A DNA stretch of 64,000 bases from positions 119,321 to 183,320 of the forward strand of contig CAZXFI010000001.1 in the NCBI GenBank assembly GCA_964640225.1, given 5' to 3'. A program made the translations under genes and the position numbers. Under the pieces are notes generated by a model. That model had not been told where the DNA came from, did not search any database, and saw only the letters and a list, made by a program, of their open reading frames with translations. Positions 4,139 to 18,546 of this stretch are shown in pieces. This stretch comes from an uncultured archaeon. GTDB lineage: Archaea > Aenigmatarchaeota > Aenigmatarchaeia > PWEA01 > JAGHBM01. The stretch's first letter is position 1; every line of letters begins with the position of its first letter.

Positions 4139-6814
4139 TTACGTGGTGGCCACACTGACCTTTGTTTTTTCTCCCGAGTATCCCTCGTTCTTTATGAAAA
4201 GGTCGTAGTATCCCCCGGCCCACCTCTCGTCGTTCACTATGTCTATTTTGTCAAAATTGAGTATTATGTTTATCACGTAGCTTATGGCCTCGTACGAGAA
4301 GGCGGGAAAAATCATGTCCCAGAAATCCCCGGAAGCTATGGAGTTTTCCTTTCCCTCCACGTTTGAGCACCCCTCCATACTGAAGGCAAGCAGGACGTCA
4401 TAAAGGGAGGTAATGCTGGCGTTGTAGGAATTGCCGTCCCGGCTATAATTTGAGTAAAGCGGCTCCTGGCCCGCGAAAACCCAGGCCACGAAAAGGTTGT
4501 TGTCCGAATCCTCGGTGCATACCCACCTGTCGCTCTGGTTCGCAAACGAATTACCGGAAAGCGCGAAGTCAAGCCCGTGAGCGGCGTGGTAAAGAACGTG
4601 GCTGCAGTTTACCGTGTAGCTCTCAACCAGAGGATTATGGGAGCCGTTGAGCTCTATCCTTACCTTGAGGTTTTTTCCGGGATTGGTGAATACATGCTCC
4701 TCGCTTTTGTTCACCTCCTCCCAGTCCGTGCCGTTATTTGCGGAGAGGTAGTATCTTATGCCCTGGCCTGTGTCGCTTGCCCATAGAGTAGCTTTTGCTA
4801 TGTTCTGGGTGGAAAAGGTACCGGAAACAGCGTAGCCAGGCCAATGCGTTTCCTCCTCCCCGATTGAATAGTCCGGGGGATTCCCGATTCCCTGCTCCCT
4901 GTAGGCGTCCCTGGAAACCTCTCCGTAGGAGGAGTTGCGGAAAAGGTACACGTAATAGGTTAGGTTCAACCCGGAAATGTCCGTGAAATGCCACCACTCG
5001 CTGATTCTGAAGCCGTTCCAGTTCTCATCCAGCATCCTGATTTTGTTGAAACTGCTCATCTGCGAGGTGTTGGGGAACATGACAGCAAAAGTGTTGTCCG
5101 AATTCATGTCCTCCTTGACGGCGTACCAGTAGCCCCCCAGTTCAGACTTCAGGTAATCCCTGCTGTAACCCGAGGGCAGGCCTGCCTGAGAAGCTCCGCA
5201 CACGTTGGTTATGAGATGGGTGGTGTTTTCAAATGCTATACAGTGGTATCCGTTGCTGGGCCAGTCTACCAGCATGTACCACGAAACATTCACGGAGGGC
5301 GAATCCGTGTCAAACTCGTCCCTTACCTTGTAGTAGGGTTTGTCGTCAAAGAAAATAAAATACCTCGTGTCGCTCACCGAGTCTCCCTCTATAACGCCGC
5401 TCCAGTTTGACTTTATTACCGTGGCCAAGGGCCCCTCGTCCGTTACCTCGTAGCTGTAGGTGGACTGGCCCATTGTGTAGTTGTCCTTTCCAGTGGGGTT
5501 GTTGTTGTAAAGTATGTTTGAGGTCTTGGGAGGCACGTCCTGCCCGTTTGTCACCGAAAGAATATCAGTCGCCTGTGATAAGGGATAACCCACATCCGCC
5601 GAGGTCCCGCCTCCCGTGTATTCAACGTAATAATCGCCTGTTATCTGAAAATAACCGGAGCCCGCGGCCAGGCCCGGAGAGTCTTCGGGATAACCGGGGT
5701 ACTGGGCATAGGAATTGTTGTAATAGACGTAATAGGTTTCCGTGGAGCCGTTTTCTATGCTTACCTCAAACAGCACCCTGGCTTCCTGGCACTTTTCCTG
5801 GTACACCTCCCCGAAAACCTGGGAAGGCATCTCGTTCCCCAGGGAATCCGTGACCCTTATCTCCCTGCTGCAGTTTTCCGCGGAATTCCCGAAATCCAGG
5901 GGCAAGTCCACGGTGTAGTTAGTGAGATTGGAATTCTGGCCGTTGGTTATGTTTATCTCCCTTCTCTTTCCCCAGCTGTAGTTCCACCAGTCAAGCACCA
6001 GGTTTCCGTCCTCTACCGTAGCGTTTACAAGCGTTTCAAAATCGGATTCCGAGTCTATCGGGTTGTAAATCACGGAATATGCCTGCTCGTTCAGGCTTAT
6101 GTCGGCCTTTACAAAGTCTGATTTTGCGCTTAAAACGTAGGTTATGCTGTAATTGAATCCGGAATCCAGCGTAAGGCTCACCTTTATTCTTCCCATGCCA
6201 AGGTGGCTTCCTGAATCCAGAAGTTCGGTGTAGCCCGTGCCTGAAGACGAGTTCTCCATATCCAGTATGCTTACCTGCGAGCCGTTGGGCGTTACGTTGA
6301 AACCGGAATCCTTTATCCACAGCTTTTTGATTAGTTTCCCCGTGTCAAGGCTTTCCGGGCTTGTGATGTTGCCTGTCTTGTTTACTGCAAAAAGCACGCG
6401 GGAGTTTTCCAGGACAAGCTCCTTCTTTCCGTCGCCCGTGACATCGGCCTCGTAAGCCCTCACGTCTGCTCCCGTGGATATCACAATGTCTCCCTCTCTT
6501 TTCCACATGCCTTTGGAAAAAAGCTCGTGCTCGCTTTCCATTTCATAAATCACCGAGTTGTCCGCCGAGGAAACCTTGTATTCCCCCTTGCCCACGGTTA
6601 TGCCTATTTTCCTGGAACTCCCGTTGCCCTCGTAAGAGACCTCTTTCACGGCGGAATTTATCCTGTGCATGGAATTTTTTGCCTCGGAAAAGCTTGAAAA
6701 TTCCTCTGTTTTTTCCAGGAGCGGGCTGCCAACTCTCAGAACCAGAGCTATTGAAGCCATGGAAACAGCGACAATCAGAATCAGGGACATCATGGGGCTT
6801 ATTCCTTTGCGCAT
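4139..6814 (-). CDS. Giant (891 aa) class-III-signal-peptide (prepilin-like) surface glycoprotein
   Basis: N-terminus MRKGISPMMSLILIVAVSMASIALV has a KG|I motif followed by a hydrophobic helix. The protein carries dozens of N-x-S/T sequons. It is the last gene of the pilus-like operon. Confidence 0.6.
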   Translation of the reverse strand: MRKGISPMMSLILIVAVSMASIALVLRVGSPLLEKTEEFSSFSEAKNSMHRINSAVKEVSYEGNGSSRKIGITVGKGEYKVSSADNSVIYEMESEHELFSKGMWKREGDIVISTGADVRAYEADVTGDGKKELVLENSRVLFAVNKTGNITSPESLDTGKLIKKLWIKDSGFNVTPNGSQVSILDMENSSSGTGYTELLDSGSHLGMGRIKVSLTLDSGFNYSITYVLSAKSDFVKADISLNEQAYSVIYNPIDSESDFETLVNATVEDGNLVLDWWNYSWGKRREINITNGQNSNLTNYTVDLPLDFGNSAENCSREIRVTDSLGNEMPSQVFGEVYQEKCQEARVLFEVSIENGSTETYYVYYNNSYAQYPGYPEDSPGLAAGSGYFQITGDYYVEYTGGGTSADVGYPLSQATDILSVTNGQDVPPKTSNILYNNNPTGKDNYTMGQSTYSYEVTDEGPLATVIKSNWSGVIEGDSVSDTRYFIFFDDKPYYKVRDEFDTDSPSVNVSWYMLVDWPSNGYHCIAFENTTHLITNVCGASQAGLPSGYSRDYLKSELGGYWYAVKEDMNSDNTFAVMFPNTSQMSSFNKIRMLDENWNGFRISEWWHFTDISGLNLTYYVYLFRNSSYGEVSRDAYREQGIGNPPDYSIGEEETHWPGYAVSGTFSTQNIAKATLWASDTGQGIRYYLSANNGTDWEEVNKSEEHVFTNPGKNLKVRIELNGSHNPLVESYTVNCSHVLYHAAHGLDFALSGNSFANQSDRWVCTEDSDNNLFVAWVFAGQEPLYSNYSRDGNSYNASITSLYDVLLAFSMEGCSNVEGKENSIASGDFWDMIFPAFSYEAISYVINIILNFDKIDIVNDERWAGGYYDLFIKNEGYSGEKTKVSVATT

Positions 6815-6844
6815 GATAATAATTGGTGGCCAGATATTAAAAAA

Positions 6845-7336
6845 TCAAAGAACGCTGAAAAGGATTTCCGGCCCGCCGCCTGAGGTGCCGTTGTTCTTTA
6901 CAACGAAATTATGGTAACCCGAGGACCATCTTTCATCCGTTGCTATGTCAACGCTCGTGTAGTTAAGCTTTATTCTGACTGTGTGATTGTCAAAAAACTC
7001 CATGAAAAGGTCTCCTTCCGTTAAGGTGCCCGGGGAGAAAAGCTCCTGGTCACTGTTCATTACGAAAAAAACAGAATCCGAGGCCGACGAAATCCTGTAC
7101 TCGCCCCCGCTCACGGAAAAGGAAAGCTTCCTTGAAGAGCCCTCGCCCTCAAAGGCCACCACTCTGATAGCCGAATTTATTGAGTTTAAAACGCCTTTAG
7201 CCTCCGTCACCATGGCATACCCCTCCACCTTCTCGTAAGAGCCGCTCCAGGACCTGAAAACCAGGACGGTTGCCGCCACGGAAATTGCCACAACAAGCAT
7301 GAAGGCTATGAAGGGGCTTATGCCTTTGCTGAACAT
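6845..7336 (-). CDS. Pilin/FlaG-FlaF-like protein with class III signal peptide (163 aa)
   Basis: MFSKGISPFIAFMLVVAISVAATVLVF. Confidence 0.55.
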   Translation of the reverse strand: MFSKGISPFIAFMLVVAISVAATVLVFRSWSGSYEKVEGYAMVTEAKGVLNSINSAIRVVAFEGEGSSRKLSFSVSGGEYRISSASDSVFFVMNSDQELFSPGTLTEGDLFMEFFDNHTVRIKLNYTSVDIATDERWSSGYHNFVVKNNGTSGGGPEILFSVL

Positions 7337-7345
7337 GGAATTACC

Positions 7346-7807
7346 TCAACAGTCATCTATATCCGTGCCCTGAATTTCGTCCCTTGCATCAGTGGGGCAG
7401 GTGCCGGAATAGAATATCACCCTGCTTATCTCGCTGCAGTTTCCAACGTGGGTTTCGTTGTAAAAAACCTCAACGTCCCCGGGAGCCAGCGTGGTGCTGG
7501 GGGCCACCCTGAGAGTTGAAGCGGTGTTGTTGGCGTATATCACGACAACCCTGAAATCCGAAAGGTCTTCGCTGTCTGTGTTTTCCACGATAAAAGAAAG
7601 CTTGGTGCCGGATTCGTTCCAGTCCGCGTCGCTTATCCTCAGGTTGGCATAGGAACACCTTATATCCTCCTCGCCCTTCTGCCTTATTTCCTCGGTCCTT
7701 TCCTTGGAAAAGGATACGAGCCACCCGGATAGAATACCGCCCACTGCTATTACAAAGGCTATGAGAAGTATGGTTGCTATAAGGGGTGATATTCCTTTGG
7801 GGGCCAT
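7346..7807 (-). CDS. Pilin-like protein with class III signal peptide (153 aa)
   Basis: MAPKGISPLIATILLIAFVIAVGGIL. It is a paralog of the next gene. Confidence 0.55.
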   Translation of the reverse strand: MAPKGISPLIATILLIAFVIAVGGILSGWLVSFSKERTEEIRQKGEEDIRCSYANLRISDADWNESGTKLSFIVENTDSEDLSDFRVVVIYANNTASTLRVAPSTTLAPGDVEVFYNETHVGNCSEISRVIFYSGTCPTDARDEIQGTDIDDC

Positions 7808-7835
7808 GAATAATATTTGTAATCCAATAAATAAA

Positions 7836-8303
7836 TTAGCAATTGAACTTTCCCGAAGAGTAAATGCAGGTAAAAATTGACTCCCTGGGGCAGTAAAGGC
7901 TCCTTACCTGCAGCTTTTCCGGGGTGTCCGTGACGTTATAGGCCGTGAAAGTGTGGAAATCCCCTGTCTTGAGGGTTATATTGGCCTCCTCCGGATTCAG
8001 AGTGCTTATGTTTACATCCGAATAGTAAACCAGGAACTGGAACTCGGAAAGGTCCACTTTTCCCATGTTCCACAGCACTGCGACTATCTTCTCATCACTC
8101 TCGTCGTAAACCGCGGTTTCCACCTGCAGGTTCGCATTCTGGCAGTTTGAAGCTATTTCCTCCCCGGCCCTCGTGAACTCCTCGGTCTGCTCCTTGGCAA
8201 AGGAGGTGGACCAGGAGGCCAGGAAAGTGGCCACTGTTATCGTGAAAGCTATCAAAAGAATGGCTGCTATAAGGGGACTTATACCTTTTCTTGACATAAA
8301 CAT
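7836..8303 (-). CDS. Pilin-like protein with class III signal peptide (155 aa)
   Basis: MFMSRKGISPLIAAILLIAFTITVATFLASW. It is a tandem paralog of 7346-7807. Confidence 0.55.
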   Translation of the reverse strand: MFMSRKGISPLIAAILLIAFTITVATFLASWSTSFAKEQTEEFTRAGEEIASNCQNANLQVETAVYDESDEKIVAVLWNMGKVDLSEFQFLVYYSDVNISTLNPEEANITLKTGDFHTFTAYNVTDTPEKLQVRSLYCPRESIFTCIYSSGKFNC

Positions 8304-8343: not shown

Positions 8344-8931
8344 CTAACCCTTGCCCGAAATCTGGAACCTGTCGCTTATGTAAGAGCCGTCATACTTCAT
8401 TCTGAAGTCGTAAAAAACCGTAACGTATCTTGAAGGACCGGCCCTGGCGCTGAAGGTCCTGTTTGCATCCCCGGACTCGGAGCCGGTGTAGCTTACGTTT
8501 ATTTCAAACATTTCTTCCGCGCCGGGGGAATGGGTGAAATTGACGTAACCGCTTTCCCCCTCGCCCAGTGAACCCGGGGAATCGGTTTCATCGGTAAGGT
8601 TCTGGCTCACCTGCACGTTTTCCATACTCTCGTTAAGGAGGTTTACCAGGGTTATGTTGAGGCTGGTTCCCTTGAAATCCGATATTGAGTAGAAGATATC
8701 CACGTCCCTGTCGCTCTTCAGGAATTCTGAAAACCTGTAAACCGCGCTGTAGTTGTCCTTCCATATCGCTATTTCCCCGGACCTCCTTAGCTCGTTCCTG
8801 ATGTTGTCAAAAATGTTTATGTTGGAAGTATCGGAAAACTCGTAGCTTCCCGTGTAGGACATTTCAACCTTGATAAGGAACAAAACCAAGACCATTATAA
8901 TCGCCGTTATTATCAGAACCTGACCTTTCAT
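8344..8931 (-). CDS. Pilin-like protein (about 195 aa). The start was moved to the internal Met that precedes the TM helix.
   Basis: MKGQVLIITAIIMVLVLFLIKV has a KGQ class-III-like motif. Using this start gives a 4-nt ATGA overlap with the upstream gene. The track ORF extends to 9087. Confidence 0.45.
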   Translation of the reverse strand: MKGQVLIITAIIMVLVLFLIKVEMSYTGSYEFSDTSNINIFDNIRNELRRSGEIAIWKDNYSAVYRFSEFLKSDRDVDIFYSISDFKGTSLNITLVNLLNESMENVQVSQNLTDETDSPGSLGEGESGYVNFTHSPGAEEMFEINVSYTGSESGDANRTFSARAGPSRYVTVFYDFRMKYDGSYISDRFQISGKG

Positions 8932-9311
8932 TGCAACCACATGCTTAACTTGACCTTTAGCGGGTCCGGGTTCACGTCCCCGGCTATAAAATAGCTTGAA
9001 ACTATCACAGTTCGGTTTTCCGGAAGTGACGCCGGCGTGCAGGATGCCCTGCATACCTGGACCGTGTAGTTCATGCCGGCCAGGCACTCCGACAAACCCG
9101 CCTCTATTCCCGAGCTGTCATCACCTAAGGCCATGGGCCTCAAAACCGCGTTTTCATCCAGGGATTTCAGGCAGTAATAACCCCTTTCCGATACGCCTAT
9201 GCTGTAAGTGTCATCTGCAGGCGCCCTGAAGAAAAAAAGCAGGGCCGTGACTACAAGAAGCCCTGCTATAACCGCTTCCAGGGTGAAAGACATTCCCTTA
9301 TTTCCATACAT
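8928..9311 (-). CDS. Pilin-like protein (127 aa)
   Basis: MYGNKGMSFTLEAVIAGLLVVTALLFFF (KG|M followed by a hydrophobic helix). Confidence 0.5.
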   Translation of the reverse strand: MYGNKGMSFTLEAVIAGLLVVTALLFFFRAPADDTYSIGVSERGYYCLKSLDENAVLRPMALGDDSSGIEAGLSECLAGMNYTVQVCRASCTPASLPENRTVIVSSYFIAGDVNPDPLKVKLSMWLQ

Positions 9312-10113
9312 AAGTTACCGCGCTCACGCTCTCTACATGGCCTGTTGAATTCTGAAGAAGCACTTTCTTCCTGTTTACCCCCGTGTTCCTGTCCGTGAGT
9401 TCGTAGCCGTAGTGCCAGGCTCCCCCGGTTTTTTCCACCGCCAGCCTAAAGGGACAGTCAACCCCGAACTTTTCCCTGGCCTCCTTCAGTTCCATGTCGG
9501 CCAGCGCGTTCATCTTTGATGTGGTCAGGCCCGTGTATCTCTGCGGGCTTATCTGGGTTACGTTCAATGTGTTGTTGGTTTCAGGAAGGGATCCGTAGCC
9601 GAAATTTGTCTCGTTGTCCCTTGAATAGAATATGTGAATTATTTTTTCCCCGTAAGAAGGCACGGAAACGTTGAAAGTCACGTTAACTTCATCCAGAAAA
9701 CCGTCCCCGTCCGAGTCCGTCACGTCTTTCAGCTCCGCCTCAAGGGTCTGGTTTCCGTCGTAAACCACTATTGAGCCGTTGTAGGCATTCTCGCCGGTTT
9801 CTATGTAGGCGAATCCCGTGACCCCGCTGTTGTCGGTGCCGTTCCACTCCTCCAGATGGAGGTCAACCCTGTATATACAGGAGCCCAGGCTGGGCTTCAC
9901 GGAATTTCCGGACCACTGCCACTCTTCCGGAATGCCCTGGTCGTTGAAAACCGTGTCGCTGAGCCCCTTTGCCAGGTGCTTGATTTCAAGGGACATACCC
10001 GTGTTCAACACTGGCTGGAGGAAATGGGACGAGTACAGCACGCTCAGGAAAACCACGAACATGGTTATGACCACGGCGAAAACAAGGTCTATCTGGTTGA
10101 AACCTTTCCTCAT
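9298..10113 (-). CDS. Pilin-like protein (271 aa)
   Basis: MRKGFNQIDLVFAVVITMFVVFLSVLY (RKG|F motif). N-glycosylation sequons are present. Confidence 0.5.
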   Translation of the reverse strand: MRKGFNQIDLVFAVVITMFVVFLSVLYSSHFLQPVLNTGMSLEIKHLAKGLSDTVFNDQGIPEEWQWSGNSVKPSLGSCIYRVDLHLEEWNGTDNSGVTGFAYIETGENAYNGSIVVYDGNQTLEAELKDVTDSDGDGFLDEVNVTFNVSVPSYGEKIIHIFYSRDNETNFGYGSLPETNNTLNVTQISPQRYTGLTTSKMNALADMELKEAREKFGVDCPFRLAVEKTGGAWHYGYELTDRNTGVNRKKVLLQNSTGHVESVSAVTYVWK

Positions 10114-10670
10114 AAGAACCTCTCCATTTTTACGTAATCCCTTACATCCCCGTTTTCCATGCCCCTCAGGTAGGAAAGCTTTATCTTGGTGGCCCTTCTC
10201 ACGGAACCGCCTGCCTCAACGGAGACCACGTTATAAATCGGGTAAACGAAAACCGCCGAGGGCTTTCCCTCAGTTTCTATCCTTACGCGGGTGTAGGGCC
10301 TGTCATCCTGGTAGCTTTCCTCGTCCCCCAGGCTTCCATCTATCCAGAGGTCGCCGTGGTTTTCCAGGCTAATGATGTAGTTGTTTCCGGATATGCTTTC
10401 CGGTATGTTCAGGTAAACCTCGGAAAGGGTTGTATTTTTACCTTCTTCCGGCTCGTAATCCGACTGCCTGTAGTTGTCGTAAAGCCTGATAACGCTGTCC
10501 GCCACCCTCTGGGATAGGATTCTGGCTTGGGACTGCTGGGATTCCTCTTTTACGGAAAAATAGTAGTTGTACATCTCAACCGAAACCCCTATCATCACCA
10601 CGAAGAGTATGGCTATCGCTATGACATGGGAAATGAAAACCGAAACTCCCTTTGACGAACATTCCTTCAT
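10110..10670 (-). CDS. Pilin-like protein (186 aa)
   Basis: MKECSSKGVSVFISHVIAIAILFVVMIGV. It overlaps the next gene by 4 nt. Confidence 0.5.
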   Translation of the reverse strand: MKECSSKGVSVFISHVIAIAILFVVMIGVSVEMYNYYFSVKEESQQSQARILSQRVADSVIRLYDNYRQSDYEPEEGKNTTLSEVYLNIPESISGNNYIISLENHGDLWIDGSLGDEESYQDDRPYTRVRIETEGKPSAVFVYPIYNVVSVEAGGSVRRATKIKLSYLRGMENGDVRDYVKMERFL

Positions 10671-10672
10671 TT

Positions 10673-13600
10673 TTACAACCTGAAATAATGTTTTAGGTAG
10701 GAATTATAAGAGCCTTTCGCGGCCGTTATGTTGGCCAGGTATCTCCTGTTTTTCTCCAAATCCGCCTGCAGAATTATAAAATAGGAACCGGAAGAGTCAG
10801 TTGTGTTTGACTGCTCCCCGACCAATTTCTCCCCGTCGTAAATCCTTGCAGTTACCGTGGCCCCAGAAACAGGGGTGGCGTTGTCCCAGAAAAGAATTTT
10901 TCCTGTCAGGTTGTGCAGGATTGACCCGTTGACCGTAACGAAAACGTAGGTGCCGGAAACATTCCAGTTGCCTGACGTGTCGTTGGCGTAGAATTTCCAG
11001 GCAACCGTAGCCCCCACGGTGCTGTTCACGGTCTTGGTAATGTTGGACCAGTCCTCCGTTCCCCCGGAGGGGAAGGCTGACCAGCTGTCGTTCTGCCACC
11101 CCCCGGTGCCAGAAAAAACACTGAAGTTAAGGTCATCGTTGTCGTCGTACGTCCCCGAGCAGCATGTCTGGGCCCCCTCGCATCCGGTCCAGGACTCAAT
11201 GCACCTGACCGAATGGTTGCCTTCAATGCTGTCCACGGCAAAGGTTGCACTCTTGTTCTCAAAGCCCGTGCATGTCTGGCTGCCCGAACCGGAGTTGCAG
11301 TTGCCGTAGGCTATGTTCACCCACCCCGTTCCGTTGCTGTAGGCTATGGAATATTCCGTTCCGGGAGAGTAGCAGCACACATTGCATTTCACTTCCACGA
11401 CATCTCCGAAGACGAACGAAGTGCCGTTTATGTAAATATCCTCCAGGTGCATCCAGTCGTTGCTTGTGCCGTCCTGGCATCCGTCCGCGGTAGCGTCCGT
11501 TCCGTTCTCGTTCTTTCCGCTGCACGCGACCCCGGAGGAGCTTCCCGAGCCGTCCGCGTTGCACGACTTGCTGGTGTAATCTTCATTCCCGGAGGCGCAA
11601 TGCGTCCCGTTCCATGTGCCGTTGCACAGGCTGAACACGTAGCCGTCCAGTCCGCCGTCGGTCCATCTTAAACTAAAAAGCACGGGCTCCCCAGCGTAGG
11701 TGGAATTGGTGGAATGCTCCCAGTACTTCGGAGGCGTGACATCGTAAGTAAAATAAACCGAGGCGTTGAAGCCCATGTCTCCAGAAGAATCGTTGCAGTA
11801 AACGTAAAGGCGGTGGGTTCCCTGAGGAATTGAATCTATGGAGTACCACCAGACTGTTCCTGAGCCGGACATGGTTGTGTTTGAGCCTGTATCGTTTAGG
11901 TTCCAACCGCACCACACCGCGGTTTCATTCGTGGTTATGTTAAGGTCTATGGGCAACGAGTTGTACGTTACGTTCTGCGGGTTCACCACGGTTATTCCCG
12001 GTGGAGCCAGGTTTGCCGTGACGAAGGTGAAATTTTCCGAGGCGTTCCAGTTGTCGCTTGTATCGTTGGCGTAAACTTTCCACCACACGGTGGCCCCGAC
12101 TTCCCCAGTCACTTCCCTGGTGACGTTGGACCAGTCCTCCATGCCTCCTGACGGGAAAGAACTCCACGAGTCGTTAACCCAGGCACCTCCCAAGCAGTCC
12201 TGCTCCTCCCCGAGGGATACGGACTCGGATGAATTGTATTTTGAGACGAAAACCCAGTAAACGTGAAACTCCTGCCAGGAATCGTCGCAACCGTAGTTGC
12301 TTCCCTCCGAGTACAGCTTAAGGTAGCTGGGGCTCCCGCTTACCCAGGCAAACTCGTTCTGCCCGTTGCAGTTGTGTCCCCCAAGCCTGAAAGCCTGGTA
12401 GCGCACGCCCAGTGGGTTTACGTAAAGGTTTGATGATTTCACCAGGCTCCCGTCTGACGCGTCCCACACCCTCAGCCCGGTCTGGGTGGAATTGAAAAAC
12501 TGCTCCATGTTGTAAGTTTCGCTCTCAGTTATCCAGAATCCGGTCCCGTCAACGGCGCTTCCCGTGTCGTTCCTGGCGTAGAACTTGCATTCCGGGTGGG
12601 TCTGATCGGCCCCCCCGTCCGTGTTGGTCCTTGTCCAGTGATTCAGGCTGTTGTTCACATACATGTCCGGCCCGGAGTTGTTGCTCAGCCCCATTGATAT
12701 GGTGTTGTGTGCCCAGTTTCTCGAGTATATGTCATTTATCTTGACTTCCATTATTAGCCTTGCGCTGCCCATTTCCAGCCCCATGTCCCTTGAATAGAAA
12801 TCATCGTTCCCGCTCGCCTCGTAATCCCACTCCCCGTCGGTGTCCGCGGAGAAATCGTCAAAAAGTTCAAAAACCTCGGTGCCGTTGCTTTTTGGCTCCG
12901 CATCCGTGTAGTTGTAGTAAACGGAATAAACCTGTGTGGAGGAGTTGTCCCCCCGGAACCAGACCACGGACTCGCTCGTTTCGTTCCATTCCTCTATCCA
13001 GTAAGGCATTTCCTGGCCGCCCCCGGCGCAGGAGGAGTTCACTATCCTCACGTCAGAGCCGTCGTCGTTTGAAAGGGAGTAGTTGAAGCTGGTCGTGTTA
13101 AGCACGAGCCTGTGCTGGTAGTCGTTCATGGGATTTACCGTTATATTCCTGCACTTCCGGAAAGAGGAGTTCCACCAGCCCTGTGACAGGTATGTCTCGT
13201 TGTACATGCTGAAAACATAGCCGCTCAGTCCGCCGTCAGTCCACCTTAGCCTGAACTCAACAGGCTCTCCCGCGAGCGTGGAGTTGGTTGAGTTGTCCCA
13301 GTACTTCGGAGGCTCTTCGTCCTTTTCCACCTTTATCTCGTGCTCCGAACCCAGGAGTACGGTAAACTGGGAAAGGGTTCCGTTTTCATCCGTTTCCAGT
13401 CCGTAAGTCAGCACGGAATTGTTGTAAACATTGTAATACGTATCGGGGAGCAGCCCGCTGATGTTGTACGTGGCAACAACGCCCTTGCCGCTGATGTTGG
13501 TTTCGTTCCACTGGACAAGAGTCTGGTTTATGTTCAAAAAATCTCTTTCAAGGATGGATGGCTTGTTTACTGTCGTGTTCAGCCAAATTCCGCCCGAGGT

Positions 13601-14422
13601 CTCGTTGTTGTAGCTGAACCACCCGGAAGAATCGGAAAAAAGTACCTGCCTTGATGTGAAGTTGGTGTTCCTGAATGAATTGCCGTGACCGTACTTAACG
13701 TTGTAATCGGAATCGGGATTGAAAAACCTGTCCATCACGGTTCCCCCGCTTACAGAATTGTCTGTGCTGTTTTCAAGGGCAAAAATACTGTTGCCTCCTG
13801 TTATGTTATTGTCTGAAAGTGTGTTGTTGTGAGACTTGAATAACTGGAGACAGCCCTGGTTGTAAACAAAAAAATCGTTGCCCGTTACTTCACTGTTGTT
13901 TACGTTGTTAAGTCTCAGTGCATCTCTTGAGCCGAATTTTACGGTGTTGTTCTCAAACTTGCAGCCTGTTGAGTTAACAAGGGAAATGCCTCCGTAAAAG
14001 AAAGCAACCGTGTTGTTTCTTACCGTAAGATTGAAAACGTTCTGAAAAACCATCGTAGTGGAAAATCCTGTACCAATATAGCCATTGTCCAAAATTCCAC
14101 CGTCTGATGTATTGGAGTAATATATGGCGTAACTGCTGCCAAAGCTGCTCATGTTCACCTCGCAGTTCCTTATCGTGACGTTGTTGAAGCCGGTGTTGTT
14201 TATCCCGTAGGAGCCGTTGCTTTCCAGCTGGTGGCCTGCGCAATCCAGTGTTACGCTAGAGGCATTTATGTAAAGGATTGTTCCGGTGCACCCGGTTATG
14301 TTGTAGCTGAGAACTGTGCTCTCATTCACGTAGCCACCGCAGGCCAAATCCGCCCTTACCAGGCCCGGAAGCAGGGCTATCACAGCCAGCGCCGCAAGAA
14401 CGCAAGTTTTCCCAGACACCAT
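10673..14422 (-). CDS. Secreted 1249-aa right-handed beta-helix (pectin-lyase-fold / NosD-like) surface glycoprotein with internal repeated domains and a C-terminal carboxypeptidase-regulatory-like domain
   Basis: A Sec signal peptide (MVSGKTCVLAALAVIALLPGLVRA) is followed by periodic beta-helix repeats (NNTV..N.S.GGISL...). Sequons are extremely dense. There are two copies of a PPKYW..STNST.AGEPV.F.LRWTDGGL.GYVFS module and two copies of a DSWS.FPSGG.EDWSN.T..V....GATV.WK.YANDTS.NWN module. Confidence 0.6.
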   Translation of the reverse strand: MVSGKTCVLAALAVIALLPGLVRADLACGGYVNESTVLSYNITGCTGTILYINASSVTLDCAGHQLESNGSYGINNTGFNNVTIRNCEVNMSSFGSSYAIYYSNTSDGGILDNGYIGTGFSTTMVFQNVFNLTVRNNTVAFFYGGISLVNSTGCKFENNTVKFGSRDALRLNNVNNSEVTGNDFFVYNQGCLQLFKSHNNTLSDNNITGGNSIFALENSTDNSVSGGTVMDRFFNPDSDYNVKYGHGNSFRNTNFTSRQVLFSDSSGWFSYNNETSGGIWLNTTVNKPSILERDFLNINQTLVQWNETNISGKGVVATYNISGLLPDTYYNVYNNSVLTYGLETDENGTLSQFTVLLGSEHEIKVEKDEEPPKYWDNSTNSTLAGEPVEFRLRWTDGGLSGYVFSMYNETYLSQGWWNSSFRKCRNITVNPMNDYQHRLVLNTTSFNYSLSNDDGSDVRIVNSSCAGGGQEMPYWIEEWNETSESVVWFRGDNSSTQVYSVYYNYTDAEPKSNGTEVFELFDDFSADTDGEWDYEASGNDDFYSRDMGLEMGSARLIMEVKINDIYSRNWAHNTISMGLSNNSGPDMYVNNSLNHWTRTNTDGGADQTHPECKFYARNDTGSAVDGTGFWITESETYNMEQFFNSTQTGLRVWDASDGSLVKSSNLYVNPLGVRYQAFRLGGHNCNGQNEFAWVSGSPSYLKLYSEGSNYGCDDSWQEFHVYWVFVSKYNSSESVSLGEEQDCLGGAWVNDSWSSFPSGGMEDWSNVTREVTGEVGATVWWKVYANDTSDNWNASENFTFVTANLAPPGITVVNPQNVTYNSLPIDLNITTNETAVWCGWNLNDTGSNTTMSGSGTVWWYSIDSIPQGTHRLYVYCNDSSGDMGFNASVYFTYDVTPPKYWEHSTNSTYAGEPVLFSLRWTDGGLDGYVFSLCNGTWNGTHCASGNEDYTSKSCNADGSGSSSGVACSGKNENGTDATADGCQDGTSNDWMHLEDIYINGTSFVFGDVVEVKCNVCCYSPGTEYSIAYSNGTGWVNIAYGNCNSGSGSQTCTGFENKSATFAVDSIEGNHSVRCIESWTGCEGAQTCCSGTYDDNDDLNFSVFSGTGGWQNDSWSAFPSGGTEDWSNITKTVNSTVGATVAWKFYANDTSGNWNVSGTYVFVTVNGSILHNLTGKILFWDNATPVSGATVTARIYDGEKLVGEQSNTTDSSGSYFIILQADLEKNRRYLANITAAKGSYNSYLKHYFRL

Positions 14423-14456
14423 GATTAAATTTTGTATTCAAACAATAAAATCGTTT

Positions 14457-15317
14457 CTAAAGCATTATGGTGAACGCAGTGAAGCCTATCGCAACGAACA
14501 CTATCAGGTGCTTTAGCCCCGCCAGCACCGAGCCTTCGGACATCTTGCCTATGGCCAGCCCCGAGAAAAAGCCCTGTATTATTATCAGGTTCTGGAACAC
14601 GTCCTTGTAGGCAAGCTCCTCCTCCCCCGCTCCTATGCCGAACTCGGTTGCCCCGCCGAAAACCAGGGACGGCATGAGGAATTTCTGCAGGCCTATTATC
14701 ACGGCAAGGAAAACGAAGTATATCACGTAACCGGTGAGTATCTGTGAGTAGACGTGCGATTTCCTTTCTTCCCTTATTTTCTCTATCTCCCTTATGCTCT
14801 CCCCAACAGACTTGAGCACGTCAGCTATGTTCCCCCCGCTCCTGTGGGTCTCTATTATGGTGGACACGGTCCTCTTGAGCACGCGGCTCCCGGTGTCCTT
14901 CGCAAGCGTCCTGAGAACCTGGTCAAAAGGTATGCCCCAGTCTATCTGCCCGGACATCTTCCTGACGTACGGGGAGAGAGCGCCGTAATCATTCTTGGAG
15001 GCCGACTCTATGGCCTGGGGAAGCGTCATTCCGGCCTCCACGCCCCCCACCACGTCGTTGAGGAAATCCGGGAATCTTGACTCTATCTCCTTGGTGCCCG
15101 TGTACTCCCTGTACTTTATGAGCGTGGCCGGCCCCAGCACCAGGGAGGCCCCTACCAGGTTCAGCACCGTGAAAATCTGGACAAGCTCCTGGAAAAAGAA
15201 GAAGTTCACCGAGATTATACTGACCCCTATCACAAGGGAGCCCAGAACGAAGTACTCCCTCTTTCTGGACACCGCCAGCCAGCTTTCCAGTCTCTTTCCA
15301 AGGTTTTTGAAATTCAT
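14457..15317 (-). CDS. FlaJ/TadC-like T2SS-F-domain membrane protein (C-terminal half)
   Basis: 286 aa polytopic membrane protein that resembles a T2SSF domain. It lies immediately downstream of a second T2SSF-like ORF. Confidence 0.6.
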   Translation of the reverse strand: MNFKNLGKRLESWLAVSRKREYFVLGSLVIGVSIISVNFFFFQELVQIFTVLNLVGASLVLGPATLIKYREYTGTKEIESRFPDFLNDVVGGVEAGMTLPQAIESASKNDYGALSPYVRKMSGQIDWGIPFDQVLRTLAKDTGSRVLKRTVSTIIETHRSGGNIADVLKSVGESIREIEKIREERKSHVYSQILTGYVIYFVFLAVIIGLQKFLMPSLVFGGATEFGIGAGEEELAYKDVFQNLIIIQGFFSGLAIGKMSEGSVLAGLKHLIVFVAIGFTAFTIML

Positions 15318-15321
15318 GGTA

Positions 15322-16104
15322 TCACATGTGCTCCGGTTGCGTGAAGTGTATGAACATTATGAAGGCTATGTTGGTGGCCGGTATAACCAAATATATTCCC
15401 AGGCTCATTATGTCCCCTATGGTCATGCCCTCTATCGTGCCGCCGACCACGTTCATTATGGCCAGTATTGAAATAAGGAAAAGCGGCGCCGCTATCATCA
15501 CCGCGGTGTAGAAATCGGCGTAGGTTGAAAGGGCCTGAAGGTGCTCCTCCCTCCTTATCCTGTAAATGAAAAGAGCCTCCCTTGCCTTTATCTGGAGATA
15601 ATTCTTCAGGTTTCCCCCGGTCTTTATCGTGGAAAGTATGCCGTAAAGCAGCTCCCTGAAATCGGTTGAGGGTGTATTGGCGGCCACGTTCTGTATTGCG
15701 GTGGTTATGTCCTGGCCGAAACCCTCCACGTTCCTTATTATCTTGGCGGCTTCCCTGCTTATCTCCCCGTACTCACCGAACTCGGAAAGCAGCTTGAACA
15801 GTATCTTGGGCGGCACGCCGGAGGTGGCTATGGCCGACATGTGGTTTATGGCGAAGGGCAGGTTGAAATCAAGGTTCCTTTTCCTGCTGAAGGCCTTCTG
15901 GTAAGGGTAATAATACAAAAGAGCGAACACGGCTCCCGCGACACCCAGGGAAATAAGGGGAGTCAGGTAAACCAGTATTCCTGGATATATAACGAGGGTT
16001 ATAAAAAAAATCACAGGAAGCGAAGCCACGTAAGAGAGCACGGTAGCCAGGAATATGACGGACACGTAGGTTCTTGAAAGCATTTTCAGTCCGGACTCCC
16101 TCAT
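15322..16104 (-). CDS. FlaJ/TadC-like T2SS-F-domain membrane protein (N-terminal half). The start is uncertain.
   Basis: T2SSF-like topology. The track ORF extends to 16311 and would overlap the FlaH-like gene by 105 nt. Starting at the internal Met (MRESGLKML) removes that overlap. Confidence 0.55.
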   Translation of the reverse strand: MRESGLKMLSRTYVSVIFLATVLSYVASLPVIFFITLVIYPGILVYLTPLISLGVAGAVFALLYYYPYQKAFSRKRNLDFNLPFAINHMSAIATSGVPPKILFKLLSEFGEYGEISREAAKIIRNVEGFGQDITTAIQNVAANTPSTDFRELLYGILSTIKTGGNLKNYLQIKAREALFIYRIRREEHLQALSTYADFYTAVMIAAPLFLISILAIMNVVGGTIEGMTIGDIMSLGIYLVIPATNIAFIMFIHFTQPEHM

Positions 16105-16205
16105 TTTTTTCTTGAGGGGCTCAAAATTTTTTGAATATTTGTCAACGAGCCTGCCGAAAATAATCACGGATATTTTTTTAAAGTTCAAATACGCCAACGA
16201 ATCAC

Positions 16206-16898
16206 CTATACGAAGGACTTGGTCTCTTCCTTCGGATACACCACTATCCCTTTCTCCGTTATGGAGTAGGGGTGTATGTTCTCCGAGTGCGCGGAGCCCC
16301 TCATTTTCCACACGTGTATGGCCCTGGCAAAGCTGGTTTCCCTCGGTATCCTGTATAAAACTATTACGTCATCAGCAACGTGCTCCTCAACCCCGAAAGT
16401 GCTCAGGAGCCTCGGGTTTCCCGTGGGTATTTCCGATGTGAGCACCGAAGTGCAGCCCGACCTCTTGAGCATCCTGCCCACGTTGAATATGGCGGACCTG
16501 AGGTCGGACTGGTTCCTTATGTTCAGACCTAGCCCGGTTATGCTGTCTATGACGACCCGCTCGGCCCCTATCTCATGTATGTTATTTTCTATCAGGCCGT
16601 ATATGTCCTCTATGTGGAGCGGGTCGTACTTCACGAAGGTAATCATGCCCTCCTGCTCGTACTTGTCAAAGTGCCACCCGAAGTTTTTCATGTTCCTCTT
16701 CACGTCCTCGGTCCTCTCCTCAAAGGACACGAAAATTCCCGGGGAATTGAAAAACCTGGCTGAGTTGTAAAGGTACTGGCAGGCCATTATGGTTTTGCCG
16801 GTCCCTGCCATTCCCGTTATCAGGACCAGGTCCGAAGGCAGGAAACCTCCACCCAGTATCTCGTCCAGTCCCGGTATGTTTGTCCTTACTCTCTCCAT
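16206..16898 (-). CDS. FlaH-like KaiC/RecA-superfamily ATPase
   Basis: 230 aa with Walker A GMAGTGKT. The single KaiC-like domain is typical of archaellum FlaH/ArlH. Confidence 0.7.
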   Translation of the reverse strand: MERVRTNIPGLDEILGGGFLPSDLVLITGMAGTGKTIMACQYLYNSARFFNSPGIFVSFEERTEDVKRNMKNFGWHFDKYEQEGMITFVKYDPLHIEDIYGLIENNIHEIGAERVVIDSITGLGLNIRNQSDLRSAIFNVGRMLKRSGCTSVLTSEIPTGNPRLLSTFGVEEHVADDVIVLYRIPRETSFARAIHVWKMRGSAHSENIHPYSITEKGIVVYPKEETKSFV

Positions 16899-16902
16899 AA
16901 AA

Positions 16903-18546
16903 CTAACCTTTCTTCTTTTTCAGCCCGTCGAGCATCTTGCTGACCGCGGGTATGTCCTTCATGACCTCTTTGGGGCTTATGTGGTACTGGGAAACTATCC
17001 TACTTACCTCTTTCCAGTGCACGACATTTTTGTCAACCATCCACCTGAGTATTTTTTCCCTGTTTTTTATCTCCTTTCTTACTTCCTCCAGCGTCATGCC
17101 CCTGAAGCTGGCTATCTTGTTCAGGACGTAGCTTCCCTCTCCCTTGTCAAAGCTGTCCCTGGAGGAAATCCACCTGAAAACAGAGCCCGACCTCACCGAG
17201 CCGCTGGATTCCACGGACTCTATCTCGTCAATGCTCTTTATCCTTCTTGCGGACTTGCCTTTCTCCTTCGCGTGGGTGAGCGTGACCACCAGGTCCAGTA
17301 TCTCCACCAGGCTGGGCGAAAGCTCTATCGGAGGAGACTGTAGCCTCTTTATCACCGTGGAAACCCCCGCGGCGTGCATGGTGCCTATGGATGGGTGGCC
17401 CGAAGCCATTCCCTGGAACATCACCGAGGCCTCCTTGCCTCTTATCTCCCCGACTATCACGTAATCCGGGTTTTGCCTGAAGCTTTCCTTCAGCAGGTCA
17501 AACATGCTCACCTCCCCGTACCTCTCCCCAGTGGGCTCCATGGCACCGAATCCCATCCTTGTTACGGAGGGAATCCAGTTCTCGTGCGGAAGCTGCAGCT
17601 CCCTTGTGTCCTCTATTGAGACTATCTTGAACTCGGGAGGTATGAAAAGGCTTATGGCGTTAAGCATGGTGGTCTTTCCCGTGGCCGTGCCCCCGCATAT
17701 CAGCATGGAGATCCCGGACTCAATGCAGAACCACAGGTATGCCATGGCCTCCACGGAGGAGGTTTCCAGGTTTATCAGGTCTATGGGGGACATGGGCTCG
17801 GAGCTGAATTTCCTTATGGAGAACGTGGGGCCCTTTGTGGTGACATCCTCTGCCAGGGAAGCCTGCACTCTGCTCCCGTCAGGCAGGGCCCCGTCCAGGA
17901 GCGGCTCGGCGTAGCTTATGTACCGGCCGCACCTCTCTGAAAGCTTTACCACGAAGTTCTTTAGCCTGTCATTGTCCTTGAACATAATATTGGTCTCTAT
18001 GGAGCCCAGTTTCTTGTGAACCACGTAGATGGGAATGTTAAGCCCGTCGCAGGAAATGTCCTCTATGTAGGGGTCGTGCATGAGCGGCTCTATATCGTTG
18101 AGCCCCACGAAGTCCCTGTAGATGTAGTACATTATCTTGTTGTAGGAAACGTTGTCCAGCTCTATCTCTATCTCGTCCAGTATCTTCCTTACCTTGTCCT
18201 CCAGGTACTCAAACGCCTTGTCCGCGTTCTTCACGGAGGAAAGGTGTATATCCACAACCTCCACCAGGCTCTCCTTTATCTTTGCGTAAACATCCTGCTC
18301 TTTCTTGCCCAATTTGGGCTCCTTCAGCCTGTAGAGCAGCCCCCCTTCAACGTCGCTCCACTTTATGTGGACGTAAGAAAAAGGCTCCAGAAGGGGGTAC
18401 GTTGTCCTGAATTTCTTTATCTCCTTTATCTTTGGAAAAACTATGAGCTTGTCGGGAACTTTCATTATGAACTTAAGGCCCTCGCTCTTTCCGGGTTTCT
18501 CCCTCAAAGCTCCCCTGAGGCTTTTTATCTTCTCTACAAAATCCAT
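16903..18546 (-). CDS. FlaI/TadA-like type II/IV secretion ATPase (GspE/VirB11 family)
   Basis: 547 aa with Walker A GGTATGKTT and the conserved GspE-family core (SIEDTRELQLPHENW, VGEIRGKEA). Confidence 0.85.
   Translation of the reverse strand: MDFVEKIKSLRGALREKPGKSEGLKFIMKVPDKLIVFPKIKEIKKFRTTYPLLEPFSYVHIKWSDVEGGLLYRLKEPKLGKKEQDVYAKIKESLVEVVDIHLSSVKNADKAFEYLEDKVRKILDEIEIELDNVSYNKIMYYIYRDFVGLNDIEPLMHDPYIEDISCDGLNIPIYVVHKKLGSIETNIMFKDNDRLKNFVVKLSERCGRYISYAEPLLDGALPDGSRVQASLAEDVTTKGPTFSIRKFSSEPMSPIDLINLETSSVEAMAYLWFCIESGISMLICGGTATGKTTMLNAISLFIPPEFKIVSIEDTRELQLPHENWIPSVTRMGFGAMEPTGERYGEVSMFDLLKESFRQNPDYVIVGEIRGKEASVMFQGMASGHPSIGTMHAAGVSTVIKRLQSPPIELSPSLVEILDLVVTLTHAKEKGKSARRIKSIDEIESVESSGSVRSGSVFRWISSRDSFDKGEGSYVLNKIASFRGMTLEEVRKEIKNREKILRWMVDKNVVHWKEVSRIVSQYHISPKEVMKDIPAVSKMLDGLKKKKG

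Follow-up and report, generated by a model that had tools for sequence, protein, structure and literature searches.

The window analysed here, a 64-kb stretch of DNA from a tiny symbiotic DPANN archaeon, Ca. Aenigmatarchaeota, carries a tightly packed operon of 13 genes, all on the minus strand, at positions 4139-18546. In the direction of transcription it encodes an assembly ATPase, a KaiC-family ATPase, two TadC/FlaJ-type platform proteins, a 1249-residue surface protein (BH1249) and eight proteins with pilin-like N-termini, the last of which (p891) is also a giant. An earlier note on this DNA had described the packing as tight, with many 4-nt overlaps. The open reading frames and their junctions, with gaps of 2-40 nt, bear out the former, but "many" is an overstatement because exact 4-nt ATGA overlaps number two (p186/p271 and p127/p195), with one further overlap of 14 nt. 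The flanking genes are of a housekeeping kind, namely an eS26-like ORF and gatDE. Gene-order conservation, which the earlier note had proposed as a check, was found for the whole operon in sister contigs; between sister genomes the non-giant genes of the machinery share 62-87% identity with their orthologs, and both giants are mosaic, aligning over just 4-42% of their length. The ATPase-TadC-TadC core is seen again, together with p155-like pilins and pilins like the N-terminal part of p891, in Woesearchaeota loci, parts of this core and its pilins are present in Undinarchaeota and Pacearchaeota loci, and an Altiarchaeota locus contains a DUF2341 giant.

Assembly machinery

The assembly core combines an ATPase of PilB/GspE type with a TadC platform encoded by two genes. 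The ATPase (16903..18546, minus strand; 547 aa) is a secretion ATPase of the PilB/GspE/FlaI superfamily and of a non-archaellar type, matching Pfam T2SSE at 108.6 bits and PilB3_C at 29.7 bits (cutoff 27). It had earlier been called FlaI-like, and FlaI is its best NCBIfam name (418.6 bits, E 4e-125), but this score falls under the cutoff of 550 and close to the 430.4 bits that A. fulgidus GspE (2OAP), a non-archaellar protein, attains on the same model, whereas genuine FlaI from S. acidocaldarius (4II7) attains 670.9 bits. The top PDB sequence match is likewise 2OAP, at 380.7 bits, ahead of FlaI at 295 bits, and with this ranking and the sub-cutoff score the assignment to FlaI was rejected. 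The platform is encoded by two half-size genes on the minus strand, one of 288 aa with a TTG start (15322..16188; T2SSF 53.4 bits) and one of 286 aa (14457..15317; T2SSF 70.2 bits), which fit the N-terminal and C-terminal halves, respectively, of the ArlJ/FlaJ and UpsF models. Thus the FlaJ/TadC identity proposed earlier stands, but a single platform gene does not, as there are two genes with one T2SSF domain each; most related DPANN loci in which both genes remain show the same split.

A gap of 4 nt separates the ATPase gene from the next one downstream, which encodes a single-domain KaiC-family ATPase of 230 aa (16206..16898, minus strand; PF06745 222.7 bits) with intact Walker A (GMAGTGKT) and Walker B (VVIDS) motifs and an intact FEE catalytic pair. 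NCBIfam KaiC models score it at 126-186 bits, and KaiC models overall at up to 223 bits, against 34.2 bits on the ArlH model (cutoff 215); its top PDB matches are KaiC CI structures (239 bits) and PH0186/PH0284, with no FlaH among the structures matched. The proposal that it is FlaH-like was therefore rejected, and the idea of motor parts derived from an archaellum is unsupported, given this and the sub-cutoff FlaI score of the assembly ATPase. A KaiC gene occupies the same position in related loci L002, L003 and L006-L009, and the window encodes two further KaiC paralogs, both more ArlH-like than the operon protein. From its gene position only, we predict that the KaiC protein partners the assembly ATPase in an accessory or regulatory capacity; it may dock on or regulate that ATPase in a role analogous to that of FlaH with FlaI, and its gene may derive from a resident KaiC paralog through an independent recruitment.

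These results bear on the reading of the locus as an ordinary or reduced archaellum operon, in which the ATPase would be FlaI, the KaiC protein FlaH, TadC FlaJ, and the small pilins p155 and p153 FlaF/FlaG, with archaellins encoded elsewhere. The locus does share with the archaellum the superfamilies of its ATPase, platform and pilin-like subunits; besides the FlaI name of the ATPase, ArlJ models are the best matches of the TadC halves, and a RecA/KaiC-fold ATPase gene adjoins the motor ATPase gene in a FlaH-like position. However, all equivalog thresholds are failed: in addition to the FlaI and ArlH scores, ArlF/ArlG models reach 14-25 bits in the operon against cutoffs of 110, and Arch_flagellin reaches 15-16 bits against 29.5. 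No archaellin in the operon is above threshold, as the earlier note had observed, and neither an archaellin nor an extra class-III ORF was found in the 64 kb, screened outside the operon by a motif filter, or in the syntenic sister loci. Furthermore, the FlaJ counterpart is split into two genes, FlaC/D/E/X are not in the operon, the gene order is I-KaiC-J instead of H-I-J, and archaella are mostly missing in DPANN (PMC5498576), the group to which the host belongs. This reading is already largely refuted, and we consider it highly improbable.

Pilin-like proteins

All eight proteins encoded downstream of BH1249 begin with [KR]G and continue into a hydrophobic helix, as had been noted from the sequence, and these N-termini are kept in orthologs from two sister contigs. 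A strict home-made filter for class-III motifs was passed by five of the eight, its other matches in the window being two non-pilin ORFs, and by this filter the rest of the 64-kb window contains no further class-III candidate. No prepilin peptidase is encoded within the 64-kb window.

The first four genes form a tightly packed, minor-pilin-like cassette, p186-p271-p127-p195, with overlapping junctions between the last three pairs. p186 (10110..10670, minus strand), with the ortholog-conserved N-terminus SKG/VSVFISHVIAIAILF (the slash follows the [KR]G or equivalent residues), is separated by 2 nt from the gene upstream, overlaps the one downstream by 4 nt and weakly matches DUF7266 (E 8e-4). 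p271 (9298..10113, minus strand; RKG/FNQIDLVFAVV), recognized by the motif filter and its orthologs, overlaps its neighbors at both junctions, and p127 (8928..9311, minus strand; NKG/MSFTLEAVIAG, with Glu at +6) is conserved in orthologs and weakly matches DUF7288 at its N-terminus (E 2.7e-4). For p195 (8344..8931, minus strand; MKG/QVLIITAII, with KG/QVL kept in orthologs), the sequence and its junction place the true start at the ATG at 8931 (195 aa), which forms an ATGA overlap with the stop codon of p127; an upstream GTG was rejected as the start.

The next gene encodes p155 (7836..8303, minus strand; RKG/ISPLIAAILLIAF), a canonical archaeal type IV pilin, and is followed by that of its tandem paralog p153 (7346..7807, minus strand; 45% identity, BLASTP E 1e-28). 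Both pass NCBIfam TIGR02537, the archaellin/pilin N-terminal domain (p153 at 28.8 bits, cutoff 20), which, beside the sub-cutoff ArlF/ArlG scores, is the outcome of the FlaF, FlaG and pilin model searches that the earlier note had suggested. p155 has the archaeal pilin fold, its best match is the filament subunit of a solved archaeal type IV pilus, and its globular domain superposes on FlaF, FlaG and archaellins; it is a candidate for the filament (major) subunit or for a FlaF/G-like base component. p155-like pilins are a conserved core in several of the examined DPANN loci.

p163 (6845..7336, minus strand) is a small pilin of a DUF7289-like family and the base form of the adjacent giant. Its family has 234 representatives at E<=1e-3, PF23960 (DUF7289) is matched by 35 of 60 small members, and the ortholog in L005 is annotated as DUF7289. 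By sequence alignment, p891 (4139..6814, minus strand; 891 aa) is a paralog of this 163-aa pilin with a nested insertion of ~730 aa: residues 4-112 of p163 align with 3-112 of p891 (46% identity, BLASTP E 7e-29) and residues 118-153 with 846-881 (44% identity, E 3e-9), so that the insert, which includes a DUF2341-like module, separates the N-terminal part of the pilin (1-112) from its last strands (846-881). Because the predicted structure of p891 has a pLDDT of 30, this topology is drawn from the alignment alone. The giant weakly matches DUF2341 (20.5 bits) and DUF7289 (16.1 bits) and has 29 sequons, against 12 +/- 3 in composition shuffles; its orthologs, of 1018-1485 aa, have conserved ends and a variable middle. 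A prepilin of this size had been thought unusual, but within its own family large members are common: 61 of the best 150 representatives are longer than 350 aa and 6 are longer than 1000 aa (up to 1485 aa), with either a C-terminal extension or an insertion. We predict that p891 is an adhesin displayed at the tip.

A Sec-signal giant

BH1249 (10673..14422, minus strand) agrees with its earlier description as a Sec-secreted beta-helix protein saturated with N-glycosylation sequons. Its sole hydrophobic segment is N-terminal and Sec-type, leaving it without a membrane anchor; it matches Beta_helix at 29.8 bits and DUF2341 at 49.9 bits, and contains 29 Cys and 73 N-x-S/T sequons, where composition shuffles give 26 +/- 4. 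A beta-helix is followed by a split beta-sandwich with the DUF2341 module and by another split sandwich whose insert is Cys-rich; the split repeats inside the protein reach scores of 181 and 234, where shuffles average 27 and 35. The protein is a mosaic, since homologs span only 4-41% of its length, and its DUF2341 module (residues 412-524) shares 62-70% identity with modules within giant pilins P0003-P0005 of sister genomes. By analogy with PilY1, we predict that BH1249 is a non-pilin adhesin presented by the pilus; as it is without a beta-propeller, this likeness is one of analogy and not of family membership.

Discussion

The association of KaiC ATPases with archaeal type IV pili, the two tadC genes of clades 1 and 2, and large DUF2341 proteins as predicted tip adhesins have already been published, together with a minor pilin that is duplicated and varies in length (Makarova 2016, PMC4858521). 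Among the systems closest to the locus are euryarchaeal clade 2 pili of the H. volcanii PilB3/PilB4 type (PMC4858521), the likeness of the ATPase being judged by features and not by phylogeny. The features in common are a non-archaellar FlaI-like ATPase with PilB3_C, two tadC genes, an in-operon KaiC-family ATPase, PilA-like small pilins, a duplicated variable-length minor pilin and an accessory large secreted protein, and DUF7266, DUF7288 and DUF7289, which are pilin-like families of haloarchaea, are matched weakly. In contrast to clade 2, the locus comes from a DPANN archaeon and carries all its pilin genes in cis, the variable-length pilin has 891-1485 aa (published, ~250-550 aa) and is lengthened by insertion into the pilin fold, and the beta-helix/DUF2341 giant is closer to the clade 1 "adhesins" than to an S-layer-like protein. 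A conserved cluster-2 DPANN locus adjoining GatE, with Aenigmarchaeota among the groups listed, is described in the portion of Hamm 2024 (PMC11291902) considered here; it shares with ours a CpaF-type ATPase, TadC, a P-loop NTPase and "FlaF" and "PilA" filament proteins. The focus of that paper is coiled-coil proteins, and our comparison is of the other components; the descriptions in that portion include neither a giant beta-helix protein, nor a giant split pilin, nor a KaiC identity of the NTPase.

The clade 1 Epd pili of Methanococcus and Thermococcus (PMC4858521; PMC10133366) likewise have an ATPase, two TadC genes, at least five minor pilins and two large DUF2341 proteins, proposed to be tip adhesins. 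Unlike in Epd, the ATPase here is FlaI/GspE-like and not of the divergent clade 1 type, the EppA peptidase and FleN/MinD genes are not in the locus, and a prepilin, p891, is one of the pair of DUF2341 giants. In M. maripaludis, transposon insertions abolish transformation when they fall in epd pilus genes, the ATPase gene, the two tadC-like genes or a DUF2341-domain gene, the last being required for pilus-dependent transformation (PMC10133366). Could the locus primarily encode a DNA-uptake (competence) pilus, supplying a metabolically reduced symbiont with nucleotides or genes? The same parts list argues for it; however, profile searches of the operon found no DNA-binding or ComEC-like component, and hypervariable glycosylated beta-helix and lectin-like modules better fit recognition of a ligand or host. 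We find uptake as the primary function quite improbable, noting that it is compatible with adhesion and that the two are not mutually exclusive.

Another possibility is a bindosome-like system, as raised in the earlier note, or a pseudopilus, in which a short class-III envelope scaffold assembles or anchors BH1249 and p891 as a surface layer or feeding apparatus. It would accommodate eight differing pilin-like proteins, none obviously a small and abundant major pilin, a Sec-secreted giant that has no anchor and is encoded in mid-operon, and housekeeping flanks, next to which the operon may be constitutively expressed; S-layer-like proteins have also been noted in PilA-type loci (Makarova 2016, PMC4858521). 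Against this, BasE scores 225 bits (cutoff 1000) and BasF 47 (cutoff 1300), a solute-binding domain, the defining bindosome cargo, occurs in none of the eight class-III proteins, and p155, closest to a solved pilus filament subunit, has relatives at the conserved core of the DPANN loci noted above. We regard this reading as unlikely.

Known from its genes alone, the operon is in our judgment probably a non-archaellar archaeal type IV pilus, most likely for attachment to host cells or surfaces. This agrees with the GspE-like ATPase, the non-ArlH KaiC protein and the lack of archaellins in the operon, and of the proposals made earlier, an adhesive pilus with the beta-helix protein as tip or sheath is the one best supported, the giants serving as tip or decoration. 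Our best reading is an adhesive pilus with swappable tip adhesins, in which the two fast-changing glycoprotein giants probably serve as an adhesive tip. The predicted signals would be cut after [KR]G by a prepilin peptidase whose gene would lie elsewhere, and the ATPase and TadC would extrude a filament made mainly of p155/p153. The p186-p271-p127-p195 cassette and p163/p891 may form a priming or tip complex, like bacterial minor pilins, that would show p891 directly, via its own pilin module, and BH1249 indirectly, as minor pilins hold PilY1, the latter by pure analogy. In bacterial modular pilins and PilY1, effector modules are common to different "carrier" modules, and in GspK a domain is inserted in the pilin fold (Raynaud 2021, PMC8179133). 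Our locus is similar in that a carrier, whether a pilin module or, as with PilY1/PilC, a protein docked on four minor pilins, would present interchangeable effector modules, in that modules are common to pilin and non-pilin carriers (here giant pilins and BH1249), and in that p891 has a domain inserted into its pilin beta-sheet; it differs in the archaeal pilin fold and signal, the predicted heavy N-glycosylation and the length of the insertion (~730-1300 aa, against ~100 aa in GspK).

The locus is an elaborate form of an already known archaeal pilus system. The new details are p891 as a split paralog of p163, the sizes reached in this family, the sharing of modules between BH1249 and giant pilins, and the mosaic nature of both giants, whose exchangeable glycosylated effector modules would set binding specificity.

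Gene content and setting of the operon

The locus on which the earlier note had settled is real and correctly delimited, and consists of thirteen genes, all on the minus strand, within window 4139-18546, joined by gaps of 2-40 nt, a 4-nt ATGA overlap at two junctions and a 14-nt overlap at one. The first gene encodes a 547-aa secretion ATPase (T2SSE, 108.6 bits), which has a PilB3_C domain (29.7 bits against a cutoff of 27) and is most similar to A. fulgidus GspE, and the second a 230-aa KaiC-family ATPase (PF06745, 222.7 bits against a cutoff of 26.6). The TadC/FlaJ membrane platform, previously taken for a single gene, is divided between the third and fourth, two half-size genes with a single T2SSF domain each (53.4 and 70.2 bits). 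Most related loci have this split too, and we therefore reject an assembly artefact as its cause. ATPase and platform are thus encoded together, which is the core of a type IV pilus or type IV filament system. They are followed by BH1249, a 1249-aa protein (10673-14422), and by eight proteins that begin with [KR]G and a hydrophobic helix, the feature of type IV pilus subunits: p186, p271, p127, p195, p155, p153 and p163, named by their length in aa, and the 891-aa p891 (4139-6814). One start was reassigned: the fourth small protein begins with the ATG at 8931, in overlap with the stop codon before it.

Directly downstream of the operon lie gatD and gatE. On its other side, an ORF for an eS26-like ribosomal protein (…PKAKAPYKRGYDHGRERGRESTVRCSLCGSKVPR…; ~18556-18830, minus strand), without a canonical in-frame ATG, GTG or TTG start, ends about 8 nt before the start codon of the pilus ATPase. 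The operon is wedged between rps26e and gatDE on one strand, because the same eS26-like gene also precedes the ATPase in three related loci (L008, L010 and L011).

Comparison with the archaellum and other type IV systems

The earlier note had offered two readings of the locus, an adhesive pilus with the beta-helix protein as its tip or sheath, or a bindosome-like system with archaellum-derived motor parts, and had called its KaiC protein FlaH-like. On the FlaI/ArlI equivalog model (NCBIfam NF058587), which we calibrated with control sequences taken from PDB alignments, the operon ATPase scores 418.6 bits against a cutoff of 550; S. acidocaldarius FlaI reaches 670.9 bits and the non-archaellar A. 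fulgidus GspE, which is also the best PDB sequence match of the operon ATPase, 430.4 bits. The KaiC protein scores 34.2 bits on ArlH against a cutoff of 215 and 18-25 bits on FlaH models with cutoffs of 194-215, and its PDB matches are KaiC CI and the PH0186/PH0284 structures, with no FlaH among them; its proposed FlaH-like identity is accordingly withdrawn. On ArlJ models, with cutoffs of 400-570 bits, the half-size TadC proteins reach 95 and 54 bits. No archaellin (FlaA/FlaB) is found above threshold in the operon (PF01917, 15.6 and 16.0 bits against a cutoff of 29.5), and a strict motif filter for class-III signals, that is, prepilin-type N-termini, yields no further class-III ORF in the rest of the 64-kb window, which bears out the absence of archaellins noted before. 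Nor does any operon ORF match FlaC, FlaD, FlaE or FlaX in Pfam or NCBIfam, every ORF being otherwise accounted for, and these proteins and the archaellins are likewise missing from the syntenic sister loci. With FlaI and ArlH scores below cutoff, a split platform and neither archaellins nor FlaC/D/E/X in the operon, an archaellum is rejected. The Sulfolobus bindosome is rejected as well, since BasE scores 224.6 bits against a cutoff of 1000 and BasF 46.7 against 1300, and no solute-binding domain was found among the operon proteins.

Rather than deriving from an archaellum or representing a novel type of machinery, the locus belongs to an already-described class of archaeal type IV pilus loci, of which it is a well-elaborated example from the Aenigmatarchaeota. 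In a survey of archaeal type IV pili (Makarova et al. 2016; PMC4858521), KaiC-family ATPases are associated with the operons, tadC is present as two genes in clades 1 and 2, a minor pilin (arCOG02911) is duplicated and varies in length, and a pair of large DUF2341 proteins is proposed to act as PilY1-like tip adhesins. The present operon has two tadC genes and a KaiC gene, as described for euryarchaeal clade 2, and its unequal tandem pilins p163 and p891 are candidates for the duplicated minor pilin. The ATPase itself may fall in clade 2 of the archaeal VirB11-family tree, as its PilB3_C domain and its similarity to A. fulgidus GspE indirectly suggest. Conserved type IV pilus loci next to GatE have been described for cluster-2 DPANN, Aenigmarchaeota among them (Hamm et al. 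2024; PMC11291902). A DPANN archaeon with type IV pilus systems and linked LamG-like proteins, and without archaella, has also been reported (Golyshina et al. 2017; PMC5498576).

The pilin-like proteins

The class-III signals proposed for all eight proteins hold up: the [KR]G and helix are kept in the orthologs of every one of them on two sister contigs, and five of the eight pass the strict motif filter, which elsewhere in the 64 kb is passed by two non-pilin ORFs only. On the NCBIfam model for archaellin/pilin N-termini (TIGR02537) both p155 and p153 score above the cutoff, and the structure model of p155 is a pilin 'lollipop', which shows a predicted pilin fold for this protein. No prepilin peptidase (PibD/FlaK/EppA, A24) was recognised in the 64-kb window by membrane-protein and GxGD screening; the sole polytopic membrane ORF there (32635-33519) is, by eye, unlike an A24 peptidase.

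One type of minor pilin has a conserved acidic residue a short way past the predicted cleavage site. It is represented by p127 (window 8928-9311) and by proteins of three related loci (L016 14040-14807, L018 8664-9314 and L019 16920-17612), with the motifs …FTLEAVIAG, FLEAFIATV, SMEAIIISIV and SVEAMLAIML, and the residue recalls Glu5 of bacterial type IV pilins.

The two giant proteins

The tandem paralogs p163 and p891 differ greatly in length. Residues 3-112 of p891 align with residues 4-112 of p163 (46% identity) and residues 846-881 with 118-153 (44%); since its two ends correspond to the two parts of p163, some 730 aa would be nested within the pilin domain, and these alignments show a predicted split-pilin architecture. 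An AlphaFold2 model of p891 from a five-sequence alignment reached a pLDDT of 30 and was unusable for a fold search. Its orthologs, of 1018-1485 aa, have conserved ends and a variable, DUF2341-containing middle. The DUF7289 HMM (PF23960) gives 16.1 bits for p891 against a cutoff of 27 and no match to p163 itself; it matches 35 of 60 small p163 relatives (best E 3.3e-12), and the ortholog in locus L005 is annotated as DUF7289.

The earlier note had considered an 891-aa prepilin unusual, a view that the family as a whole does not sustain. An exhaustive HMMER search with p163 gave 234 representatives of a family that spans 85-1485 aa; among the best 150 of these, nearly all of which start with the prepilin motif, 61 exceed 350 aa (41 of 351-600 aa, 14 of 601-1000 aa and 6 of more than 1000 aa). 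The large members have either a pilin domain with a C-terminal extension or one split by an insertion. With so many large members beginning in a prepilin motif, giant prepilins are nothing out of the ordinary in this family.

The second giant, BH1249, has the Sec-type signal and right-handed beta-helix described for it (Pfam Beta_helix), and DUF2341 in addition. It is indeed saturated with N-glycosylation sequons, with 73 against 26 +/- 4 in shuffled sequences; p891 has 29 against 12 +/- 3. Homologs cover only 4-41% of the protein, and judged by this patchy coverage BH1249 is a mosaic. Targeted local alignment with shuffling controls found that a split beta-sandwich with inserts nested in it occurs twice, a repeat that is seen only in this way, BLASTP of the protein against itself reporting no internal repeats. 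Its DUF2341 module shares 62-70% identity with modules found within giant pilins from sister genomes and 32% with that of p891, and being so much closer to the former, it argues that the two giants exchange modules. A lipoprotein anchor for BH1249 is rejected, as its cleavage site is without a lipobox. No C-terminal PilY1 beta-propeller was found, the Pfam matches being Beta_helix and DUF2341 only; the likeness to PilY1/PilC is one of functional analogy, together with the DUF2341 link stated by Makarova et al. (2016; PMC4858521). In bacteria, modular pilins and PilY1 have effector modules in common, and GspK carries an inserted domain (Raynaud et al. 2021; PMC8179133). The same logic is found in the present locus.

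The KaiC-family ATPase

Membership of PF06745 is accompanied by a Walker A motif, a Walker B motif and a catalytic Glu pair visible in the alignment. The operon protein has one domain, whereas the clock KaiC has two. Only the closest clade (L002, L003 and L006-L009; ATPase identity at least 72%) has the KaiC gene between those of the ATPase and TadC; more distant DPANN loci have none there. Two more single-domain KaiC-family genes, convergent and overlapping, lie at window 36000-36713 (plus strand) and 36710-37435 (minus strand), the latter 40% identical to the operon KaiC. The two paralogs are the more ArlH-like, with 66 and 47 bits on the ArlH model against 34 for the operon protein.

Conservation in related loci

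Proteins of Candidatus Aenigmatarchaeota MAGs share 72-79% identity with the operon ATPase, and those of other DPANN lineages 42-54%; the window also encodes archaeal LSU rRNA and RNase P RNA. In the sister contigs the whole operon is syntenic, including its place before gatDE, and the machinery and small pilins are 62-87% identical. The ATPase-tadC-tadC order is kept in most of the more distant DPANN loci, several of which also keep p155-like pilins and a pilin of about 225 aa homologous to residues 9-239 of p891. These loci come from a contig scan with the ATPase alone as query, which gave 16 loci, many on short contigs, so that outside the closest relatives the downstream pilin cassette is only partly documented as conserved.

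In other Aenigmatarchaeota and in Altiarchaeota loci, the platform genes are followed by genes for large Sec-signal proteins that contain DUF2341 or have a DUF2341-like start. An Undinarchaeota locus possibly has a similar large Sec-signal protein in this place, in which Pfam found no DUF2341. Among the putative minor pilins of the Altiarchaeota, Undinarchaeota and L016 loci, Pfam found almost nothing except DUF2341 in a 751-aa Altiarchaeota protein.

Two observations concern more distant loci. Woesearchaeota loci (L015 106-5433 and 12519-15578; L012 7743-10307) have a protein of at least 1775 aa with a C-terminal pilin-strand motif as in p163 and p891 (…YTLLIKNEG…), and their first TadC gene is lengthened at the N-terminal end by a long fused stretch (854-1019 aa), perhaps the counterpart of the coiled-coil proteins of Hamm et al. 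(2024). The more distant Aenigmatarchaeota locus L014 has a gene for a 1230-aa protein whose N-terminus resembles that of a prepilin (MNKKG|LVGAV…; 15611-19303), and a divergent KaiC-like gene lies on the other strand, some 1 kb downstream of the ATPase; this suggests that giants and KaiC proteins have repeatedly become linked to these pili.

Other features of the window

The archaeal LSU rRNA match (58793-62721, minus strand) is 3929 nt long against a 2987-nt model, and therefore holds about 940 extra nt, which form at least one insertion or intron; within the window no SSU rRNA gene adjoins it. A 113-nt Rfam tRNA match (63689-63801, plus strand; 58.7 bits) is probably an intron-containing or otherwise non-canonical archaeal tRNA, ARAGORN having found no tRNA anywhere in the window. 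Islands of low GC (29-39%, against ~50% elsewhere) between ~20000 and 34000 contain two class-II aminoacyl-tRNA-synthetase-like genes that look truncated, one ProRS-like (22398-23624) and one an Asp/Asn/Lys-type core without an anticodon domain (21241-22377), as well as a radical-SAM/SPASM gene (25429-26769) and a methyltransferase gene. They are possibly a horizontally acquired biosynthetic cluster.

A possible role in host contact

How might these parts work together? A prepilin peptidase encoded elsewhere would process the eight subunits, and the ATPase and two-gene TadC platform would assemble a filament, probably from p155 and p153, which the tightly packed p186-p271-p127-p195 cassette, with p163 and p891, may prime or cap. 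In such a filament p891 would be displayed via its own pilin module and BH1249 held by the minor-pilin complex, their exchangeable glycosylated modules may bind a host or substrate, and the KaiC ATPase could modulate the assembly ATPase.

DPANN archaea rely on physical contact with host cells. To our knowledge, almost nothing is known of the molecules that make this contact, and we know of no characterised representative of the Aenigmatarchaeota. A bolder proposal, which as a whole we consider rather unlikely, is that the operon encodes a host-range device of an episymbiotic DPANN archaeon, in which two carriers at the pilus tip, a Sec-secreted PilY1-like giant and a pilin split by a nested insertion of ~730-1300 aa, would exchange the same ligand-binding cassettes (DUF2341/lectin-like and others), and a KaiC-type ATPase or kinase, having convergently taken over the FlaH role on a non-archaellar motor, would gate the assembly of the pilus. 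If true, it would be an archaeal counterpart to the bacterial modular-pilin/PilY1 logic and a direct handle on host recognition by Aenigmatarchaeota.

Current views are refined and illustrated by this operon, and none is overturned; its main interest lies in the giants as candidates for host recognition, in the pilin family with nested insertions and in the DPANN setting. It offers a concrete parts list, with an assembly core that is conserved, a likely filament subunit for which the structural model is confident, and two giants which, being hypervariable, predicted to be heavily glycosylated and built with common exchangeable modules, are the obvious candidates for recognising a host or a surface. 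In one archaeal pilin family very large modular pilins are common, some of them formed by insertion into the pilin fold, and the modular-pilin principle, so far documented mainly in bacteria, is thereby extended to an archaeal family.
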